Notes under the pieces: generated by a model | What the model was told of the DNA's origin: nothing | The model's database searches: none | Seen by the model: the letters and a program-made list of their open reading frames with translations, nothing else | Assembly: GCA_913055635.1 (NCBI GenBank) | Contig: CAJXLK010000023.1 | Location: forward strand, 4,610 to 68,609 | Length of the DNA: 64,000 nt | From: an uncultured Bacteroidota bacterium | Lineage (GTDB): Bacteria; Bacteroidota; Bacteroidia; Bacteroidales; UBA12077 | Reading direction: 5' to 3' | In this document: positions 8,837 through 35,780 of the stretch, piece after piece | Numbering within the stretch: the first letter of the stretch is position 1 | Layout of the letters: each line of letters starts with the position of its first letter | Made by a program: the position numbers and the translations under genes

Positions 8837-9217
8837 TTAATCGACGATCTCGATCATCTTGAAGGGCACCCGGATGATGGATTCGTAATCTTCACCCGAT
8901 TCCAGCATATCTTCATCGTCTTCTTCATAATACCAGTTGATCACTACCTCATTGCGGGCCCGCTTTAATGATTCGAGCTTTTTAAAGATGTCAAGGATGC
9001 ATTTGGATGAGCTGGTGTTGAAATATTCCAACTGGACGTTAACGGTGGTTTTTTTGTTGGGATTTTTGGCATATTCATCCAGCCATTCGATGATGGGCCG
9101 GTAAAATTCAATGGAATTTTCCGGTATCGAACGGCCCTTGATCTCAATCACCCCGTCTTCCGGATTCATCTTTATCTCCGGGGTTTTGGTAGTAGCTTCA
9201 ATTGATATAGACTCCAT
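8837..9217 (-). CDS. siaC: SiaC family regulatory phosphoprotein (DUF1987)
   Basis: TPEI, GRSIPEN, YFNTSSSK (phosphoacceptor Thr motif), WYYEEDDEDMLESGEDY. Confidence 0.88.
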   Translation of the reverse strand: MESISIEATTKTPEIKMNPEDGVIEIKGRSIPENSIEFYRPIIEWLDEYAKNPNKKTTVNVQLEYFNTSSSKCILDIFKKLESLKRARNEVVINWYYEEDDEDMLESGEDYESIIRVPFKMIEIVD

Positions 9218-9233
9218 ATCGAGTTATGCTTTT

Positions 9234-9779
9234 TTAAACGTAAATATCCAGGTTGAAAAAGGAATATTCCTCATTGTAATGGTTGAATTGATAGGCCATT
9301 TGCCTGTCGGTGCGTTTGGCCATATCAATCAAACCCAGGCCGACGCCTCCTTTTTGTGTAAAGTCCTGGTTATTGAGTATTTGTTTGTACAGGTCTTTGA
9401 GTTCATCTTTGGTCATGGCCTTTACCCGATCCAGGCGGTCTTTCAGGGGCTGAATCTTTTCATTTCTGATAAAATTGCCGGTAGAAACTTTGTAACGTTC
9501 TCCTTCCCTGGTAATAACGAAAATGCCGAAATGTACGTCAAATTTTCCATCGCTGGTATCGGGCAGGTCATCAATATGATGATATAAGTTTTGAAGGCTT
9601 TCGACCAGCACGTTGTAGAGCTTTTTTTTAATGCTCTTCTTGATGATCAGGTCTTCCAGCTTGGCATCGATGACTTCCAGAACATTGGTGATCAATTCAG
9701 AAGATATGCTTCCTTTATAGGCCAGTATCACTTCTCCTGAGTTCATTCTGGAATAATACTGATCAATGTCAAAATGCAT
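9234..9779 (-). CDS. siaB: SiaB family protein kinase (DUF6272, GHKL-like)
   Basis: YKGSIS, VESLQNLYHH, TGNFI, GGVGLGLIDMA; directly upstream of siaC; ATG 9779 preferred over TTG 9791. Confidence 0.87.
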   Translation of the reverse strand: MHFDIDQYYSRMNSGEVILAYKGSISSELITNVLEVIDAKLEDLIIKKSIKKKLYNVLVESLQNLYHHIDDLPDTSDGKFDVHFGIFVITREGERYKVSTGNFIRNEKIQPLKDRLDRVKAMTKDELKDLYKQILNNQDFTQKGGVGLGLIDMAKRTDRQMAYQFNHYNEEYSFFNLDIYV

Positions 9780-9820
9780 ACAAGCCTTCAAATTGGGGTG
9801 ATTTTTGACTATAACCTAAG

Positions 9821-26178: not shown

Positions 26179-26238
26179 AATGTTTTTTTTGTTCTTTACA
26201 GCATTCATAGGTTCAACAAAATCTAGCCCTGATCGTTC

Positions 26239-26437
26239 AACTGGAACCCCGCTAACTGGCACCCCGCTTAGCGGGGTCTTGAACTGGCACCCCGCTAACT
26301 GGCACCCCGCTTAGCGGGGTCTTGAACTGGCACCCCGCTAACTGGAACCCCGCTTAGCGGGGTCTTGAACTGGCACCCCGCTAACTGGAACCCCGCTTAG
26401 CGGGGTCTTGTTCTTGGTATACCCCGCTAAGCGGGGT
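26239..26437. repeat. Four tandem 43-bp units carrying the ACCCCGCTTAGCGGGGT palindrome plus one inverted core copy
   Basis: Unit AACTGG(A/C)ACCCCGCT-AACTGG(C/A)ACCCCGCTTAGCGGGGTCTTG at 26239, 26282, 26325, 26368; ACCCCGCTAAGCGGGGT at 26421. Confidence 0.95.
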
Positions 26438-26472
26438 CGCAAAAGTGAGCTCGGAATTCCGTCAATTTTGTG

Positions 26473-28749: not shown

Positions 28750-29157
28750 TTACTTGAGGCCCTTTTTCTGAAACAACGGGGCATACTTTTGATCAGTGCC
28801 CATGATGTGCTTGAGCAACCAGTTTTTTAGATAGGTCAGCAAGTCGATTACATCGCTGGTGTTATCGGCATCCAGGTTGGCCCGATAGCTGGCGATCTTC
28901 TCCTTGAAGTTTTCATGTTCCTGCCGGTGTGCTTCATAACCTTCAAAACCGTAAAGCTGCATGAACTTCTCCTCATGATTGAAGTGATAAACCGCGTATT
29001 CTTCAAGCTCTGAAAAGATTTTTTCCAGATCCTGGTTGCTGATTCCCTGATAGAACTTGTTGTAAAGCTCATTGATCAAGTGAACCAGGTGCTTGTGCTG
29101 ATCATCAATCGAGGGAATCTTGACCGAATAGTTGTCTTTCCATGTAATGAATTCCAT
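28750..29157 (-). CDS. Bacteriohemerythrin
   Basis: W-x3-YSV, IDDQH, HFNHEE, HRQEH, HIMGTD: full di-iron ligand set. Confidence 0.93.
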   Translation of the reverse strand: MEFITWKDNYSVKIPSIDDQHKHLVHLINELYNKFYQGISNQDLEKIFSELEEYAVYHFNHEEKFMQLYGFEGYEAHRQEHENFKEKIASYRANLDADNTSDVIDLLTYLKNWLLKHIMGTDQKYAPLFQKKGLK

Positions 29158-29182
29158 ACCATTTAAGGTTTGTATTGAAACA

Positions 29183-30418
29183 TCAGTTGAGTTGCATGCC
29201 AATAAGGGTTACGTCGTCGATTTGTTCATGGTTGCCTTTCCACTGCTCGAATCTTTGGGTGATGAAATTTTTCTGATTTTGAAGCCCCTGTTGATGAATT
29301 TCATGAAGCATTTGTCTGAACTGTTTCTTGCCAAACTTTTTGTGGTAAGGCCCGCCAAACTGATCCTGATATCCGTCGGAAAACATATAGAGCATGTCGC
29401 CGGGATGATAGTCGATCTGATGAAGGGTGAAATCCCGGGAGTCTACAAAAGCTCCTACCGGCATATTGTTGCCTTTGATTTCAAGGGGTTCTCCCTGGTG
29501 AACCAGGATAATCCGGCTGTTGGCCCCTGCAAAATAGAGTTTTTTTTCCCGGGGATGGATGGCGCAGATGGAGATGTCCATACCGTCCTGCTGGTTTTGC
29601 TCGGCTGAGCTGTTAAGCTCTTCGATGATTTGGCTCCGCAATTCATTGAGGATGAAATGGGGCTGAACAACCTGCCTGCCTTTTACAATGTCGTTCAGTG
29701 CCGTTATGCCCAGCATCGTTATCAAAGCACCGGGAATCCCGTGGCCTGTACAATCGGCTACACTGATCAGGGTGGTTTGATCCAGGCGTTGGGTCCAGTA
29801 AAAATCGCCTCCAATGATTTGTTGGGGTTTATAGAATAGAAAATAGGGAGAAAGATTCTCCTTTAACACGCTATCATCAGGAAGCATGGCATTCTGGATG
29901 CGCTCGGCATAACGAATGCTGCTGTAAATTTCCTGGTTTTGCCGGTTCAGCCTTTGTTTTTGTTTTTCGCGTTCAGTTACATCATCCACGATGAGCAAAG
30001 CCATCCGTTCACCCTGATAAGAGACGGCTTTAACGCTATAGTAAAAGTATTTGGTGAAGGTTTGTTCCCCCCGGTGAATGTACTTGGTATCATATATGTT
30101 TTTCAGGGCATCGGTGTTTTGTGAAAATATCTGGTTGATTGCATTCAGGAGCGGACACCGATGGCAGTGCTCGGAAAAACCACAGCTTATTGTTCCATTG
30201 TCGGTATACATACAATCCAGGGCATTGCCGAAGAGGCGGTTGATAGTAGCTTTCTCATCTTTGTTTAAAAGGGCAATGCCGGTTTGGTTGTAATTTTTTA
30301 TTTCCCGGTTCCTGGAGAGTACAAACACACTGGAATGCAGATTTTCCAGTACTGTATTTAAAAATGCACTGGATTGGCGGATGTTTTCCGGCTCCATACC
30401 ATGAAAGGTATTTTCCAT
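29183..30418 (-). CDS. Cys4-PAS-like domain + SpoIIE/PP2C phosphatase (SiaA-like)
   Basis: GNALDC-x9-CG-x4-CHRC; GGDFYW, ADCTGHGIPGA, DGMDI, SDGYQDQFGG, DDVT. Confidence 0.9.
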   Translation of the reverse strand: MENTFHGMEPENIRQSSAFLNTVLENLHSSVFVLSRNREIKNYNQTGIALLNKDEKATINRLFGNALDCMYTDNGTISCGFSEHCHRCPLLNAINQIFSQNTDALKNIYDTKYIHRGEQTFTKYFYYSVKAVSYQGERMALLIVDDVTEREKQKQRLNRQNQEIYSSIRYAERIQNAMLPDDSVLKENLSPYFLFYKPQQIIGGDFYWTQRLDQTTLISVADCTGHGIPGALITMLGITALNDIVKGRQVVQPHFILNELRSQIIEELNSSAEQNQQDGMDISICAIHPREKKLYFAGANSRIILVHQGEPLEIKGNNMPVGAFVDSRDFTLHQIDYHPGDMLYMFSDGYQDQFGGPYHKKFGKKQFRQMLHEIHQQGLQNQKNFITQRFEQWKGNHEQIDDVTLIGMQLN

Positions 30419-30429
30419 CTTAGAACTGT

Positions 30430-30870
30430 TTAGGGATTTGACTTGGTCTTGTCAACTTGCTGTTCAAGGTCACTTTTCATGTTTTCTTGCTGGTTGTTTA
30501 TATTTTTGGATTTTTCTTCGATGGCTTCGATTAAACCGATCAGCTTGTCCGATTCTTCCTCCAGCCGGTTGTATTGATTGGTGGCTTTTTGAAGATCGCC
30601 GGTTTTTTTCAGTTTAGGAATTTCTTCAACCACTTGATGGATAAGTTGATGCTTATCCACCAGTTGTTGCATCTCCGGGTGGTGTTTATAGGCTTCCCAG
30701 CCGACCTGATTGATCCATTGGCCCAGCTCACATTCCTGATCGGAAACGATTTTGTTTTCATCCAGGTCGTCCAGGCCAAGCAGATAGGCCTTCAATTTCA
30801 TCTTCCACATGCGGTGTTTGTGTTTGGCGTAGAAAAAGTTCAGTTCCATAGGCGCGGTTTTAGCAGTCAT
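30430..30870 (-). CDS. Stand-alone CZB (chemoreceptor zinc-binding) domain protein
   Basis: HRMW, ECELGQW, HQLIH: 3His/1Cys set. Confidence 0.85.
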   Translation of the reverse strand: MTAKTAPMELNFFYAKHKHRMWKMKLKAYLLGLDDLDENKIVSDQECELGQWINQVGWEAYKHHPEMQQLVDKHQLIHQVVEEIPKLKKTGDLQKATNQYNRLEEESDKLIGLIEAIEEKSKNINNQQENMKSDLEQQVDKTKSNP

Positions 30871-32617
30871 TGATTTTTTCTTCGGCGTTTTCGAGCTGTT
30901 TCATCCAGGTGGTGAACATCAGATCTATTTCTTGCTCATACATTTTTCGGGTTTGTTGTTCTTTTCGGGTTTGTTGTTCTTTCATTTGTTTGATTTCCTG
31001 TATTTTGCGCTCGTTGTCGTGGTTGAGTTTTTCGATTGCTTGCTTTTGTTTTTGATCCTTATCCTCAAGTTCTTCCTGAGTGGCTTTCAATTCTTCGATA
31101 TGTTGGCGGAGCTGTTCGTCCTGGGTGCGTACTTCTTCCATTTGCTGCTGGGCTTCTTCTTCCGCCTTTTTCTGTTCGCTGATATCGCGGAGCATCCCCA
31201 CGAACATCCGCTTATTGTCGAGCCAGGCTTCTTCTACCCGTATTTCAAGGGGGAAGACATTGCCCTGCTTGGTGATGCCTTGTTCATGCCGGGCTTTACC
31301 CAAAATACGCCGCTCTCCAGTTTTTTTATAGTGATCAATGTATTGGTCATGTTCCTGGGCATATTCGCGGGGCATCAGCAGGCTGACGTTTTCTCCCTGG
31401 ACTTCCGATGCAGTGTATCCAAAAAGTTTTTCGGCCGAGGGGCTGAACTGATCGATAATGCCATGGTCATCGATCGTAACAATGGCATCCATGGCGTTTT
31501 CAAAGATCATTTTATTTTTAGCCTGGCTTTGCTCCAGCGATTCCTGGGTGGCTTTCATCTCTTCCATGTTCTGGCGGAGTTCTTCCTCCTGGGAAGCAAG
31601 TTCTTCGGCTTGTTGCTGACTTTTGGCCAGCAGTTCATTGGTACGCTTGTTGATCTTGATCGAGGAGAGGGTGGCCGCTATGCTTTCGGCCAGCCGTTCA
31701 ACAAAGTCGCGGTGATGTTGCTCAAATTCGCTGAATGAAGCCATTTCAATAACCCCCAGAACTTTGTCTTCAAGCTGAAGGGGCACAATCAACAACGCCC
31801 GGGGGTTGGCATCGCCCAACCCAGAGGTGATGTGGATGTAATCATCAGGAATCTCAGTCATATAGATGGACTTATGTTCAAGGGCTACCGCCCCGACAAG
31901 CCCTTCGCCCCATTCAATTTTTTTTGTCAGATATTTCTTACGGTTGAATGCATATGCAGCTGCAAGCTCAAAATATTGCTCCTCCCCGCTTTGTTGTGCC
32001 TGAGATTGTTGATTGGCTTGAGCCTGAGCTTCTCCTTCTTCTTCATCTCCCTGCAGGATGAAAAGTCCACCCTGGTTGGCCCCTACATACTGAACCAGGT
32101 TGCTGATGATGTCGTAGGACAACTCATATAGGTCATTGTTCTTATTTTGGCGGAGGATGTCATTGAATTTGGCCAATCCATCTGATATCCAGTTCCTTCG
32201 CTCATCTTCTTTCTGCCGCTCAATTTCCTCCTGGCGGTTTTTCTGAAGGCGGTCGCGAAGACTGATCAGCACTTCTCCAATTTGATCGTTTTCTTCTAAA
32301 TCATAGGAAATATCCATATTTCCTTTTTCCAGCTCCTGTGCAAACCGAAATGCCTTTTTCTGGGTTTGATGCAGATTTTGTTTTTCCTGTTGAAGGCTCA
32401 CTTTGTCTTTCTTGCACCTTTCGCTCCGGCGAATGAACCAGAGCATCATTCCCGTAAACAGGTACATTGCCCAAATCAGAGGATTGCTTGCATGGAGCTG
32501 GCCAATGCTTTTAAAAGAAAAATGCGGATTGGTCACTTCCAGGCTCAGGATGTTGAACAAGATAATCACCATGAGTCCTGCACCCAATAATATTGGGTCA
32601 AGTCTTTTCATGCCCAT
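30860..32617 (-). CDS. Membrane sensor: 2 TM, coiled coil, GAF, FixL-like PAS, C-terminal coiled coil; no catalytic output domain
   Basis: GAF (GEGLVG, LIVPL, GVIEMAS); PAS DAIVTID...AEKLFGY...LLMP...EHDQY...GKAR...G-x2-FP. Confidence 0.88.
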   Translation of the reverse strand: MGMKRLDPILLGAGLMVIILFNILSLEVTNPHFSFKSIGQLHASNPLIWAMYLFTGMMLWFIRRSERCKKDKVSLQQEKQNLHQTQKKAFRFAQELEKGNMDISYDLEENDQIGEVLISLRDRLQKNRQEEIERQKEDERRNWISDGLAKFNDILRQNKNNDLYELSYDIISNLVQYVGANQGGLFILQGDEEEGEAQAQANQQSQAQQSGEEQYFELAAAYAFNRKKYLTKKIEWGEGLVGAVALEHKSIYMTEIPDDYIHITSGLGDANPRALLIVPLQLEDKVLGVIEMASFSEFEQHHRDFVERLAESIAATLSSIKINKRTNELLAKSQQQAEELASQEEELRQNMEEMKATQESLEQSQAKNKMIFENAMDAIVTIDDHGIIDQFSPSAEKLFGYTASEVQGENVSLLMPREYAQEHDQYIDHYKKTGERRILGKARHEQGITKQGNVFPLEIRVEEAWLDNKRMFVGMLRDISEQKKAEEEAQQQMEEVRTQDEQLRQHIEELKATQEELEDKDQKQKQAIEKLNHDNERKIQEIKQMKEQQTRKEQQTRKMYEQEIDLMFTTWMKQLENAEEKINDC

Positions 32618-32939
32618 AAGTGGAGATGTTTTTAGTTTATTTCCATCGCAGAATATAATATGGAACCTGCAAACTTGGAAAAATTTTGTTTAATATCAAA
32701 GGGGGTCATACCATCCATTTTATTGGGTTTGAATGGCTCGAAGGCGGTGGTTGTTTAATGTTTTAGCATGAAGGTATTTATATGTGTGTATATATACAAT
32801 AACCTGATATATATCATGGGTGAATGGATAAGTTATTGCGTGTTTTTGTTCGGAGATTTTCAGCCTTCAAGCAGGATAGAACTACTGAAAGGTCCATTTG
32901 TTGGTGCGGAGACTGATTTTTACCGGGAGGAGAGGGGAA

Positions 32940-33716
32940 TCAGAATTTTACGCCCAGAACCGTTACGTCATCAACCTGGTCTTTGTTGCCTTTCCACTGG
33001 TTGAAGTTTTCCTGCATGGCTCGTTTTTGCTCATCGAGATTTTGGTGGCGAATATTACGGATCAATTCCTTGAATCTTTGCTTACCAAATTTTTTATCGA
33101 TGCGTTGTCCGAATTGGTTTTTATACCCGTCCGTAAACAGGTAGATCATATCGCCGGGTTGATAACCAATTTCACGGACGGTAAAATCGGTATCATCCCA
33201 AAAGGGGCCCACGGGCATGTTGTTGCCTTTAATCTCGATCATTTCGTTTTGGCGCACCACCAGGATGGAGCTGTTCGCGCCTGCAAACATAAATGATTGG
33301 CTATTCGGGTTGACCGAGCAAATGGCAATGTCCATGCCATCGTAATGGTTCAGGTTGTCCGATTCATTGAGTTCTCCCACGATCTGCCCCCGTAATTTTT
33401 TGAGGATGACGTTGGGGTGGGTTTCTTTTTGCGATTTCACAATGTCATTCAGGGCGCTTATGCCCAACATGGTGATCAGTGCCCCGGGGATTCCATGGCC
33501 GGTGCAATCGCCAACACTCAATATGGTATGTTCGCCTCGTTCACTGGTCCAGTAGAAATCGCCGCCTACAATGTTTTTGGGTCGGTAGAAAAGGAAATAA
33601 TCGGCGAATAACTCTTTAAAATCCTTTTCATCCGGCAAAAGAGCTTTCTGAATCCTTTCAGCATACCGGAAACTAATGGATATTTCTTCGTTTTGTTCGC
33701 CAAGCATTTTTTCCAT
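32940..33716 (-). CDS. SpoIIE/PP2C phosphatase without sensor domain (paralog of 29183..30418)
   Basis: RYAERIQ, GGDFYW, DCTGHGIPGALITMLG, DGMDI, TDGY, DDVT. Confidence 0.88.
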   Translation of the reverse strand: MEKMLGEQNEEISISFRYAERIQKALLPDEKDFKELFADYFLFYRPKNIVGGDFYWTSERGEHTILSVGDCTGHGIPGALITMLGISALNDIVKSQKETHPNVILKKLRGQIVGELNESDNLNHYDGMDIAICSVNPNSQSFMFAGANSSILVVRQNEMIEIKGNNMPVGPFWDDTDFTVREIGYQPGDMIYLFTDGYKNQFGQRIDKKFGKQRFKELIRNIRHQNLDEQKRAMQENFNQWKGNKDQVDDVTVLGVKF

Positions 33717-34191: not shown

Positions 34192-35363
34192 TTGTCCAAA
34201 CGAACGGGGGGTAAATCAACCACCGCCGAGGTTAAAACGGTGGTAGAAGAGAAAGAACTCGCTGCCCGGTGGTTGGTCATAGAGAGCGATCCCTCAAAGG
34301 CCAATGTGTTTATTGACGGTAAACTGGCTGGCAGGACGCCATTTCACCGGAAATATGAAGAAGGCGAATATACCTACCGCATTGAAAAAAGCCGCTACCA
34401 CAACAAAGCAGGCAAGATTACCCTAAAAGGTGAAAAAAAGAGCTTGCAAATTGAGTTGAAACCCAATTTTGGAGATATACAAGTTACATCAGTACCCGAA
34501 GAGGGGATGATGATCTTTCTCGACGGAGAAAATACGGGTAAGGAAACCCCGGCCACTTTGAACGAAATATCCTCGGGTGAACATACCCTTCAATTGCAAA
34601 GCCGCTGGTATCAACCCCAGACCAAAAAGGTAACCGTGAAGGAGGAACAAACCACAGCTGCAGATTTTAAAATGGAACCGGCTTTTGCCAATATCACCGT
34701 ACAAACACAACCGGAAATGCGGATGTCGTTTCAACCCCAATCAAGGCGGAAGTTTATGTGGATGGAGACAAAAAGGGCATCACCCCTTTAACCCTCAGCG
34801 ATTTTCTGGTTGGAAAATACAACCTGAAAATTTCAAAACAGGGCTATGGTACGGTTACAAAAACGCTGACCATTCAGGAAGGCGAGACCATCTCGGTTGA
34901 TGCGCAATTGCCCCAGGCCAAAAAAGTTGCCATCACCAGCCAGCCTTCCGGGGCAGATCTGTATATCGACGGCAGTTATATAGGCAAAACCCCTTATGAG
35001 GGTGAATTGGGTTTTGGAAGAAGAAAAGTGAAAATGATAAATGGAGAAAGAACGAAGCAGAGAAGCATTCATGTTACAGATGGAGGAAAAGACATATGGA
35101 GGTTTGAAGTTTTTGCAAATAAAGGAACTTTTATTGACTCCCGCGATGGCCAAACTTATGAGTGGGTGCGTATAGGCGACCAGGTGTGGATGGCCGAGAA
35201 CCTGAATTACGATCAGGATGCTTATGGCGATGATAAGTGTTATAATAATGATCCATCCAATAGCGATACTTACGGGCGTTTATATAACTGGGATGCTGTA
35301 ATGCAGGGTGAAAGCAGCAGCCATCGCAACTATAAGACACCTCACATGCTGATCGGAGGCTGA
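34192..35363 (+). pseudogene. Degraded PEGA-repeat + FISUMP (Fib_succ_major) domain gene
   Basis: PEGA repeats (SDPSKANVFIDG...GRTP) in two frames with a shift near 34713; FIDSRDGQTY...IGDQVWMAENLNY...YGRLYNW domain ends prematurely; no signal peptide or clear start. Confidence 0.8.
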
Positions 35364-35462: not shown

Positions 35463-35471
35463 ACTATCAAG

Positions 35472-35545
35472 TGAACCAGGGGGGACTCGAACCCCCAACC
35501 TTCTGATCCGGAGTCAGATACTCTATCCAATTGAGCTACAGGTTC
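35472..35545 (-). tRNA. tRNA-Arg(CCG)
   Basis: Cloverleaf: GAACCTG/CTGGTTC acceptor (one U-U), TCTGA-CTCCGGA-TCAGA anticodon arm, GGGGG-TTCGAGT-CCCCC T arm; CCA not encoded. Confidence 0.95.
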
Positions 35546-35697: not shown

Positions 35698-35706
35698 ATT
35701 ATCAGG

Positions 35707-35780
<74 letters not shown>

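Follow-up and report, generated by a model that had tools for sequence, protein, structure and literature searches.

Organisation of the locus

A 64,000-nt stretch of contig CAJXLK010000023.1 from an uncultured bacterium of the order Bacteroidales (assembly GCA_913055635.1), hereafter the window, was analysed around a block of four genes. The genes, designated G1 to G4, encode a membrane-anchored GAF and PAS protein, a stand-alone CZB, a PAS domain fused to a PP2C phosphatase, and a hemerythrin, respectively (Table 1). The block is discussed below as a candidate oxygen- or redox-responsive input to the phosphatase. Three-digit handles such as G012 denote the comparison genomes.

Table 1. Coordinates of the four-gene block, its domains and candidate partner genes (positions in the window; aa, residues of the encoded protein).
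Feature	Position	Strand	Details
Four-gene block	28750-32617	-	Open reading frames G1-G2-G3-G4, one strand
G1, membrane-anchored GAF and FixL-like putative heme-PAS protein, no output domain	30860-32617	-	585 aa
Two hydrophobic stretches forming an N-terminal hairpin in G1 (aa 8-62), likely membrane anchor	32432-32596	-	Read from the translation: ILLGAGLMVIILFNILSL and PLIWAMYLFTGMMLWFI, ~20 residues between
G1 GAF domain (aa 162-317)	31667-32134	-	Pfam GAF_2 52.5 bits, E = 7.8e-14; GAF 37.8 bits
G1 FixL-type PAS (aa 363-488), candidate heme-ligand His (EHDQY) and GKAR Arg	31154-31531	-	TIGR00229; alignment to FixL 8js5/1dp6
G1 C-terminal helix (aa 561-582, YEQEIDLMFTTWMKQLENAEEK), predicted CZB docking site	30872-30937	-	Complex prediction
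G2, stand-alone CZB	30430-30870	-	146 aa
G3, Cys4-PAS, helical linker and SiaA-type PP2C	29183-30418	-	411 aa
G3 N-terminal Cys4-PAS (aa 1-147)	29978-30418	-	AlphaFold2 (AF2) predicted local distance difference test (pLDDT) 93.1, 130-sequence alignment
Cys4 motif C69-x9-C79-G-x4-C85-x2-C88	30155-30214	-	Between early helices and F-alpha-equivalent helix
G3 helical linker (aa 148-178), PAS to PP2C	29885-29977	-	Model helix 148-178; domain model helix 148-164
G4, bacteriohemerythrin	28750-29157	-	135 aa from ATG 29157
AT-rich spacer upstream of G1, likely promoter region	32618-32939	-	322 nt; TTTG-N19-CAAGTTTG at 32670-32700
Sensor-less SiaA-type PP2C	32940-33716	-	258 aa, ~60 aa before catalytic domain; SpoIIE E = 3.8e-27; SiaA model 178.5 bits
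SiaB-family kinase, orphan without adjacent phosphatase, candidate counter-kinase	9234-9791	-	185 aa; NF038262 158.5 bits vs cut-off 85; Pfam DUF6272
SiaC-family phosphoprotein, candidate substrate	8837-9217	-	126 aa; Pfam SiaC 160.5 bits; NF038265 103.4 bits, below equivalog cut-off 150

The G1 and G2 reading frames overlap by 11 nt (30860-30870), with the ATG of G2 lying inside the end of G1. The gap between G2 and G3 is 11 nt (30419-30429), and that between G3 and G4 is 25 nt when G4 is read from its ATG. An alternative start at TTG 29202 would give a G4 protein of 150 aa that overlaps G3; the ATG was favoured because residue 18 of this long form is the first one covered by the NCBIfam hemerythrin model. 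The coordinates and packing of the four linked minus-strand genes were correct as described in the first-pass annotation of this DNA, in which no histidine kinase, response regulator, CheA/CheW or GGDEF protein had been seen at the locus; none was found within ~5 kb of the block. All the ligand motifs that the same annotation had claimed for the four proteins were present, and the domain matches were far above chance.

The four genes are packed tightly as an operon and are presumably co-transcribed. The spacer upstream of G1 contains an element that we take to match the Bacteroidota -33/-7 promoter consensus (Table 1). Scans for sigma-70 promoters (7 sites versus 8.6 in shuffled sequences) and for terminators (6 versus 7.5) showed no excess and are uninformative for this lineage.

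A membrane-anchored protein with a FixL-like PAS domain

The hydrophobic hairpin at the N-terminus of G1 is likely to anchor the protein in the membrane. Downstream of the GAF domain, Pfam identified a PAS domain at aa 371-481 (PAS_9, E = 8.9e-12), and the NCBIfam FixL model aligned to aa 350-496 with 108.5 bits. When G1 was searched against the PDB using phmmer, 14 of 14 matches at E <= 1e-3 were heme-PAS proteins, the best being FixL 8js5 (E = 2.3e-22). In the alignment to FixL, EHDQY and GKAR pair with the FixL motifs 'rsrHDSY' and 'IGIGR', His opposite His and Arg opposite Arg; we take these residues to be the proximal His on the F-alpha helix and the distal-pocket Arg. The position of Arg206 in FixL is occupied by His in G1. 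Both the EHDQY His and the GKAR Arg are kept in the four G1 orthologs (4/4) that have a FixL-type PAS. The FixL-like features first noted in this domain were thus confirmed by the PDB alignment and the FixL model, and on fold similarity and the His/Arg positions the domain can be assigned to the FixL-type heme-PAS group, with heme as its putative cofactor.

G1 is not a FixL two-component sensor, as there is no HisKA/HATPase kinase and the score lies far from the equivalog cut-off (108.5 bits versus 850). Pfam and NCBIfam scans identified no catalytic or output domain. There was also no methyl-accepting chemotaxis protein (MCP) signalling domain in the Pfam scan, and G1 is therefore not a chemoreceptor. 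An internal 87-nt repeat (31064-31150 and 31532-31618, 72% identity) encodes two Glu/Gln-rich helices (QEEELRQNMEEMKATQE-like) on either side of the PAS domain.

The stand-alone CZB and its predicted docking site on G1

The G2 protein scored above the Pfam cut-off for CZB (PF13682; 36.4 bits versus 29.4) and matched the DgcZ-type NCBIfam model (E = 1.8e-7). Residues H19, C47, H74 and H78 are invariant in 4/4 orthologs, which confirms the initial description of a stand-alone CZB with all 3His/1Cys ligands; G2 carries what we take to be the defining motif (H..W, C.LG.W, HxxxH). The top PDB profile match, DgcZ 3t9o, aligned at the Cys and HxxxH, although its E-value was 0.22, and a single-sequence PDB search gave nothing meaningful. 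None of the 523 candidates (0/523) for a CZB fused to a longer protein scored at E <= 1e-5, which is weak evidence against fused forms.

The first-pass annotation had ascribed zinc binding and hypochlorous acid (HOCl) sensing to the CZB. The domain assignment stands; HOCl is an unlikely general signal according to recent CZB papers and was set aside on the accessible text of that work. Recent studies, including a TlpD preprint, argue in their available portions that CZBs report Zn2+ availability or redox state, and either would be a more plausible signal for G2 than HOCl.

Alignment of G1-like proteins revealed a C-terminal motif, YE.EI..M[FYM]..W..[HQK]L. It was found in all six full-length G1-like proteins that precede a CZB-only gene (this genome, G015, G079, G080, G039 and G096) and was missing from the G1 ortholog of G018, the one ortholog without a CZB gene; G014 was left out of the count, its G1 tail being out of frame. 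Complex prediction with G1 aa 486-585 and CZB aa 1-125, on small alignments (3 and 4 rows) and with a calibration that is only rough, gave scores of 0.72, 0.73 and 0.71, compared to 0.00 for the best of three controls. Among solved complexes, 116 of 157 attained the mark used, as did 2 of 215 mismatched pairs. Contact agreement between runs was at least 100%, and partner pLDDT was at least 86. The predicted interface places G1 residues 561-582, with contacts at 564, 568, 572 and 575, against CZB residues 13-33, a helix that includes His19. For TlpD, the available part of the preprint describes CZB domains that straddle the receptor coiled coil downstream of the PAS domain. G1 and the CZB together look like a split version of this arrangement without the kinase-control tip, as far as the predicted complex can be trusted.

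A Cys4-PAS domain fused to a SiaA-type phosphatase

The C-terminal part of G3 matched SpoIIE (PF07228) at aa 214-409 (E = 1.9e-25, profile positions 3-190 of 192) and the NCBIfam SiaA model at aa 148-410 (176.5 bits), and its PP2C domain matched PDB entry 6k4e, which we take to be the SiaA PP2C domain, with E = 8.3e-37. Residues D222, D348, D401 and D402, presumably metal-binding, are invariant in 8/8 homologs. G3 could not be assigned to SiaA itself (equivalog NF038263), which has a membrane/HAMP N-terminus and adjacent siaB-siaC-siaD genes, since its score was 176.5 bits versus a cut-off of 700, the PP2C part alone aligned, there is no adjacent SiaB or SiaC, and no GGDEF domain was found in the genome.

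A word-based search for G3 homologs returned eight proteins including the query (49-57% identity), with the four Cys in all of them. AF2 modelling of full-length G3 from eight sequences gave a poor N-terminal domain (pLDDT <50 over most of aa 1-84), and this model was replaced by a domain model from 130 sequences. Foldseek placed the latter in the PAS fold (DosP, FixL, LOV and the Rv1364c PAS) with probability 1.0 and identity of at most 16%. The first description of G3, a PAS-like domain with C-x9-C-x5-C-x2-C fused to a PP2C, is thus upheld by the PAS-fold model, the invariant Cys and the SpoIIE match.

A profile built from seven N-terminal domains was run against 1.84 billion cluster representatives (50% identity) and retrieved 4541 proteins at E <= 1e-3; 830 of these reached E <= 1e-10 and 15 reached E <= 1e-30. 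The motif C-x6-12-C-x4-7-C-x2-C was present in the same place in 151/151 proteins, comprising the best 149 new matches together with P0001 and P0002. In the 130-sequence alignment, C69, C79, C85 and C88 are invariant (130/130) and the Gly after the second Cys (G80) is conserved in at least 90%. The Cys4-PAS family was defined here by a PAS fold with an invariant C-x7-11-C-x5-C-x2-C in which Gly usually comes after the second Cys, and G3 is a member. Pfam analysis of 62 representatives identified 41 with histidine kinase, 11 with SpoIIE, 3 with GGDEF and 1 with nucleotide cyclase domains, while 2 were PAS only and 4 had no Pfam match. Among the 301 genomes sampled from the order, 44 encode the domain at E <= 1e-12. 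No significant sequence relative was found in the PDB, and the literature and database searches found no Pfam model, solved structure or published description of the motif; the accessible text of a PAS survey (PMC10468136) likewise holds no description of it. By these counts, Cys4-PAS is a large, uncharacterised and portable sensor family.

The ligands of iron-sulfur (Fe-S) PAS domains are given, in the available portions of the source papers, as C52/C61/C65 in OrpR and C63/C66/C78 in NreB. The Cys cluster of G3 (aa 69-88) lies just before a helix (aa 89-99), in the same region of the fold as these ligands. The Cys4 site of G3 probably binds iron, as an Fe-S cluster or rubredoxin-like Fe, or possibly zinc; the cofactor is putative.

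A second Cys4-PAS in the same genome (C50:8000-23138, L012) lies inside a 1510-aa multi-PAS histidine kinase; the genes after it encode a REC-PAS-LuxR regulator, a REC protein and an MCP that has two CZB domains. This kinase was considered as a chance PAS match, and that explanation was rejected as it carries the Cys4 motif. A homologous kinase and regulator lie just upstream of the G1-CZB pair of G015. Genes of the RseC/MucC family were observed just downstream of Cys4-PAS-PP2C genes on a Fusibacter-titled record (L015:3323-3766) and a metagenome contig (L025:2611-2859), and these neighbours may link such phosphatases to Fe-S or redox handling.

The hemerythrin

The G4 protein scored 132.5 bits against the NCBIfam bacteriohemerythrin model NF033749 (cut-off 84) and aligned to DcrH-Hr 2avk (E = 1.8e-19) with the H, HxxxE, HxxxH and HxxxxD positions, comprising seven di-iron ligands, all matched. 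The initial description of a hemerythrin with a full di-iron ligand set was accordingly confirmed. We take DcrH-Hr to be a signalling rather than a carrier hemerythrin. A hemerythrin stands beside the PP2C in one of four known contexts, that of this genome, and its link to the other three genes is suggested by its spacing there alone.

Phosphatase output and partner-switch genes

A second, sensor-less PP2C gene lies 322 nt upstream of G1 (Table 1) and is 55% identical to the PP2C domain of G3 over 257 aa. Its ortholog in G012 (64% identity) adjoins an ABC transporter gene, and the solo PP2C is a resident gene of the locus. G3 was considered as a recent duplicate of the solo PP2C; this was rejected, given the 55% identity and a G012 ortholog that is 64% identical to the solo protein versus 52% to G3. 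The solo PP2C may form heterodimers with G3 or be controlled in trans.

An orphan SiaB-SiaC pair (8837-9791) is located ~19 kb from the four-gene block. The gene upstream of this pair encodes an RlmL-type methyltransferase. The genome, which is 99.3% complete, encodes 14 SpoIIE domains, 10 SiaC proteins, 5 SiaB proteins above the cut-off and 1 below it, as well as 3 small STAS proteins and 1-2 RsbW-like kinases in housekeeping contexts; two loci are ordered PP2C-SiaB-SiaC. No GGDEF domain was found in this genome, and therefore the target of a SiaC-type switch cannot be a SiaD-like cyclase. The connection of G3 and the solo PP2C to these particular SiaB and SiaC partners is one that we infer.

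G1-type modules are found in other contexts in the genome. An 868-aa fusion protein encoded at C22 combines a G1-like N-terminus (37% identity over aa 11-359) with a GAF domain, two PAS domains and a SpoIIE PP2C. It is part of a single-strand series (C22:14500-22500, L110) in the order CheR, CheR, CheB (methylesterase only), GAF protein, fusion protein, SiaB and SiaC. The fusion is Rosetta-stone evidence, at the level of gene structure, suggesting that G1-type modules control SiaA-type PP2Cs. Chemotaxis-type methylation enzymes thus adjoin a Ser/Thr partner switch at this locus. The N-terminal module of G1 was detected in 131/301 genomes of the order at E <= 1e-20. Many of these matches are proteins of ~760 aa with transmembrane, GAF and PAS3 segments and no output domain, encoded beside CheB (L036-L061), and a G1 paralog lies at the end of a cheA-cheW...cheB cluster in the same genome (C17:37087-39547).

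Recurrence of the sub-modules in relatives

G1 and CZB-only genes are adjacent in this genome and in six others (G015, G014, G079, G080, G039 and G096). Within the same genus, G015 has G1 (61% identity) followed by the CZB (64%), while G014 has the CZB (65%) and a G1 that lacks the PAS and has its tail in another frame, with a racemase gene nearby. In the order sample, G2-type CZBs occur in seven genomes including this one. A G1-like gene lies directly upstream on the same strand in four of the other six (G079, G080, G039 and G096) and ~860 nt downstream of the CZB in G166; in G062, no G1-like gene was found within 1.5 kb.

Among 40 relatives, the sole clear Cys4-PP2C ortholog is that of G018 (36% identity), where 20 nt separate a G1 ortholog (50%) from the Cys4-PP2C (40%) downstream of it; no CZB or hemerythrin is present at that locus. 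Full-length Cys4-PP2C orthologs in the order sample were limited to G209 and G074. From these gene arrangements, G1 is the hub of the block, G1-CZB is a conserved pair, and the combination of G1 with a Cys4-PP2C recurs once.

Comparison with known systems

SiaABCD is a partner switch of Pseudomonas aeruginosa in which the output is the phosphorylation state of the switch protein. G3 and the solo PP2C are closest to SiaA (176-178 bits with the NCBIfam model, and the 6k4e match), and the genome encodes 10 SiaC and 5-6 SiaB proteins; however, no SiaB or SiaC adjoins the block, the scores do not come near the SiaA cut-off of 700, the sensory portion consists of a Cys4-PAS and separate proteins, and the SiaD-type output is missing (no GGDEF). 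RsbP/RsbQ, of the Bacillus subtilis energy stress response, shares the arrangement of PAS, helical linker and PP2C, and there the small co-encoded RsbQ activates RsbP at the PAS/linker interface. The partners at this locus are a CZB, a hemerythrin and a membrane protein with a putative heme-PAS rather than an alpha/beta hydrolase, a Cys4 site is present in the PAS domain of G3, and there is no adjacent RsbV or RsbW.

The sensor domains also have characterised counterparts. Some 120 residues of the G1 PAS can be aligned with the heme domain of FixL (E = 1e-21 to 2e-22), both the His and the Arg being kept, but unlike FixL and DosP, G1 has no histidine kinase or EAL output, and a membrane anchor and GAF domain precede its PAS. 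G2 shares the 3His/1Cys motif with TlpD, McpA and DgcZ and is predicted to pack on a receptor helix as in TlpD; it differs in being a separate polypeptide with neither an MCP signalling domain nor GGDEF. As in NreB and OrpR, G3 has clustered Cys in the middle of a PAS that would regulate the output, whereas its spacing is C-x7-11-CG-x4-C-x2-C as opposed to CX2CX11C(X2C) or C-x8-C-x3-C, and no sequence relationship was detected. DcrH, a Desulfovibrio chemoreceptor, is the best solved relative of G4 (E = 1.8e-19, di-iron positions aligned), although G4 is a free-standing protein of 135 aa and not a receptor domain. Vibrio, also Gram-negative, has in its heme-RsbR stressosome a heme-containing O2 sensor that precedes a putative RsbU-type PP2C; that system uses a globin-STAS sensor and an RsbT kinase, parts that are absent here.

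Interpretation of the block

With moderate confidence, we interpret the block as a strain-specific mosaic operon encoding a split, SiaA-like sensor phosphatase built from modules that are found separately elsewhere. Its four genes probably report oxygen or redox state together, with cofactors, a signal flow to the PP2C, a substrate and co-transcription that we infer. G1 would act as a membrane-anchored scaffold of GAF, FixL-type heme-PAS and coiled coil, without enzymatic output, whose last helix docks the CZB, a putative Zn(His3Cys) sensor of zinc or redox state. The two proteins would form a non-covalent PAS, coiled coil and CZB receptor similar to the soluble chemoreceptor TlpD, lacking its kinase-control tip. 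G3 would be a dimeric PAS-linker-PP2C protein and G4 a signalling-type hemerythrin. A change in O2 or redox state would then alter heme ligation, zinc occupancy, the Cys4 metal site and the di-iron site, and these changes would be passed to the linker and PP2C dimer of G3; the Cys4-PAS would do this directly, and G1-CZB and possibly the hemerythrin by protein-protein contact. An effect on the solo PP2C upstream of the block could also occur. Switch proteins of the SiaC or STAS type would be dephosphorylated by the phosphatase and re-phosphorylated by SiaB or RsbW-like kinases whose genes lie elsewhere. PAS-linker-PP2C proteins are thought to be switched through their dimeric helical linker, with partners binding the sensor/linker interface, as set out for RsbQ-RsbP and RsbT-RsbU in the available text of PMC12143880. 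Two control routes are proposed for G3 because such proteins take co-encoded partners and G3 has a helix at aa 148-178.

The first-pass annotation had proposed a multi-input sensing system with Ser/Thr dephosphorylation as its only catalytic output. This interpretation is partly supported. The PP2C output is confirmed; the word 'only' is not, as there is a second PP2C, with SiaB, SiaC and STAS partners elsewhere in the genome. As to a single sensing system, the tie of G1 to the CZB and to a PP2C gained support from the recurring pairs, the predicted interface and the C22 fusion, while the four-gene set as a whole is not conserved.

Several observations weigh against a joint sensor phosphatase. 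Conservation of the gene order in relatives, the lack of which the initial annotation had named as a refutation, was not found for the four-gene set: it was present in no other genome or contig examined, and the sub-modules alone recur. In G012, a member of the same genus, the ABC transporter gene (83% identity) and the solo PP2C gene (64%) are 208 nt apart and the whole ~4.1-kb block is absent. The flanks of the Cys4-PP2C genes in G209 and G074 (up to ~1.5 kb per side, less at contig ends) contained no G1, CZB or hemerythrin, and the metagenome contigs L022 and L023 had no CZB or hemerythrin beside the PP2C. The G1-CZB pairs of six genomes have no PP2C nearby, so that their usual output may differ. 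The hemerythrin ortholog of G015 (62% identity) stands by itself near a racemase gene on another contig, again with no PP2C. The complex prediction, made on few sequences, may echo the packing of CZBs on coiled coils in solved proteins. Three of the G1-like CZB partners (G080, G039 and G096) have a different, non-FixL PAS that lacks the His, and therefore the heme-PAS would be a variable cassette on a conserved G1 scaffold. Overall, the block is apparently a mosaic, strain-specific variant of the inputs to sensor-PP2C partner switches, judging from the gene content of its relatives.

These observations could also be consistent with genes that are co-located yet functionally separate, an explanation that we consider tentative and somewhat unlikely. 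It would comprise a self-contained G1-CZB unit with its output elsewhere, perhaps linked to CheR/CheB, an autonomous G3, and a hemerythrin acting as an O2 or iron buffer, the packing being the product of a recent insertion. The occurrence of each sub-module alone (G1-CZB in six genomes, Cys4-PP2C in G209 and G074, hemerythrin in G015), the absence of the block from G012 and the presence of G1-family paralogs beside CheB in relatives and in the C17 che cluster favour it. However, G1 adjoins a Cys4-PP2C in a second genome (G018), and in this one a single polypeptide joins a G1-like module to a PP2C; furthermore, the common strand, the 11-nt and 25-nt spacers and the lack of terminator-like sites between the genes above shuffle expectation fit a single transcript.

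The Cys4 site can also be read, against four redox inputs, as purely structural zinc. This explanation, a Zn(Cys)4 knuckle in a PAS domain that senses a small molecule or a partner and leaves three redox chemistries rather than four, appears improbable. The C...CG...C-x2-C spacing is compatible with zinc knuckles, the family has no Pfam or PDB relative with a cofactor annotation, and AF2 gave a good model of the fold without a cofactor; in contrast, the Cys occupy the part of the PAS fold where OrpR and NreB bind Fe-S. Weak and indirect evidence in the same direction is that eight of the nine titled genome records with the domain bear the names of anaerobic lineages ( Bacteroidales, Tindallia, Fusibacter, Clostridiales in two cases, Clostridiaceae, Syntrophobacter and Elusimicrobia).

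Finally, an assembly artefact or chimeric contig of this metagenome-assembled genome, or the lack of any operon, is very improbable, since, despite an assembly of 77 contigs and the missing block in a close relative, both flanks are syntenic with G012 and G005, the GC content of the block (0.43-0.47) is within the range of the window (0.43-0.52), G015 and G014 of the same genus have G1-CZB (with the racemase nearby in G014), and the estimated contamination is 0.72%.

Beyond the split sensor phosphatase itself, a design shared across the Bacteroidales can be put forward as a speculation that we hold with low confidence. Output-less transmembrane GAF-PAS scaffolds encoded beside CheR/CheB, possibly methyl-modified on their Glu/Gln-rich helices, would recruit sensors such as CZB-only proteins through the C-terminal helix and drive SiaA-type PP2C/SiaB/SiaC switches with a target other than cyclic di-GMP. 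The block would then bring together four metal inputs, namely heme, Zn(His3Cys), a new iron-binding Cys4-PAS and a di-iron hemerythrin.

Other features of the window and genome

A tandem array at 26236-26450 consists of four 43-nt units with a palindromic core, ACCCCGCTTAGCGGGGT. Similar stretches were observed on several contigs of this and same-genus genomes, and the array looks like a repetitive extragenic palindromic (REP)-like element. Two overlapping plus-strand reading frames (34192-34791 and 34758-35363) both encode PEGA domains, with Fib_succ_major in the second, and may represent one gene split by a frameshift or two genes. Two minus-strand tRNA-Arg genes (CCG and ACG, at 35471-35545 and 35705-35780) are highly conserved across the genus. 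Elsewhere in the genome (C57:13500-19483, L072), the gene for a 138-aa RsbW-like ATPase immediately precedes that for a 452-aa Fe-hydrogenase-like protein containing Fe-S domains, and the pair may be a sensory hydrogenase module.

Significance

Sensor-PP2C partner switches are known, while their input signals mostly are not, and this locus offers four candidate metal-based inputs on one phosphatase. Two little-known elements are brought together here, namely the CZB-only docking pair and the Cys4-PAS family. 'CZB only' proteins are listed as a class, with no function given, in the accessible text of PMC8262984; this orphan class gains a concrete partner in the form of a predicted docking helix on a GAF-PAS membrane protein. 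For the organism itself, the presence of SiaB/SiaC switches in a genome without GGDEF implies a different kind of target.

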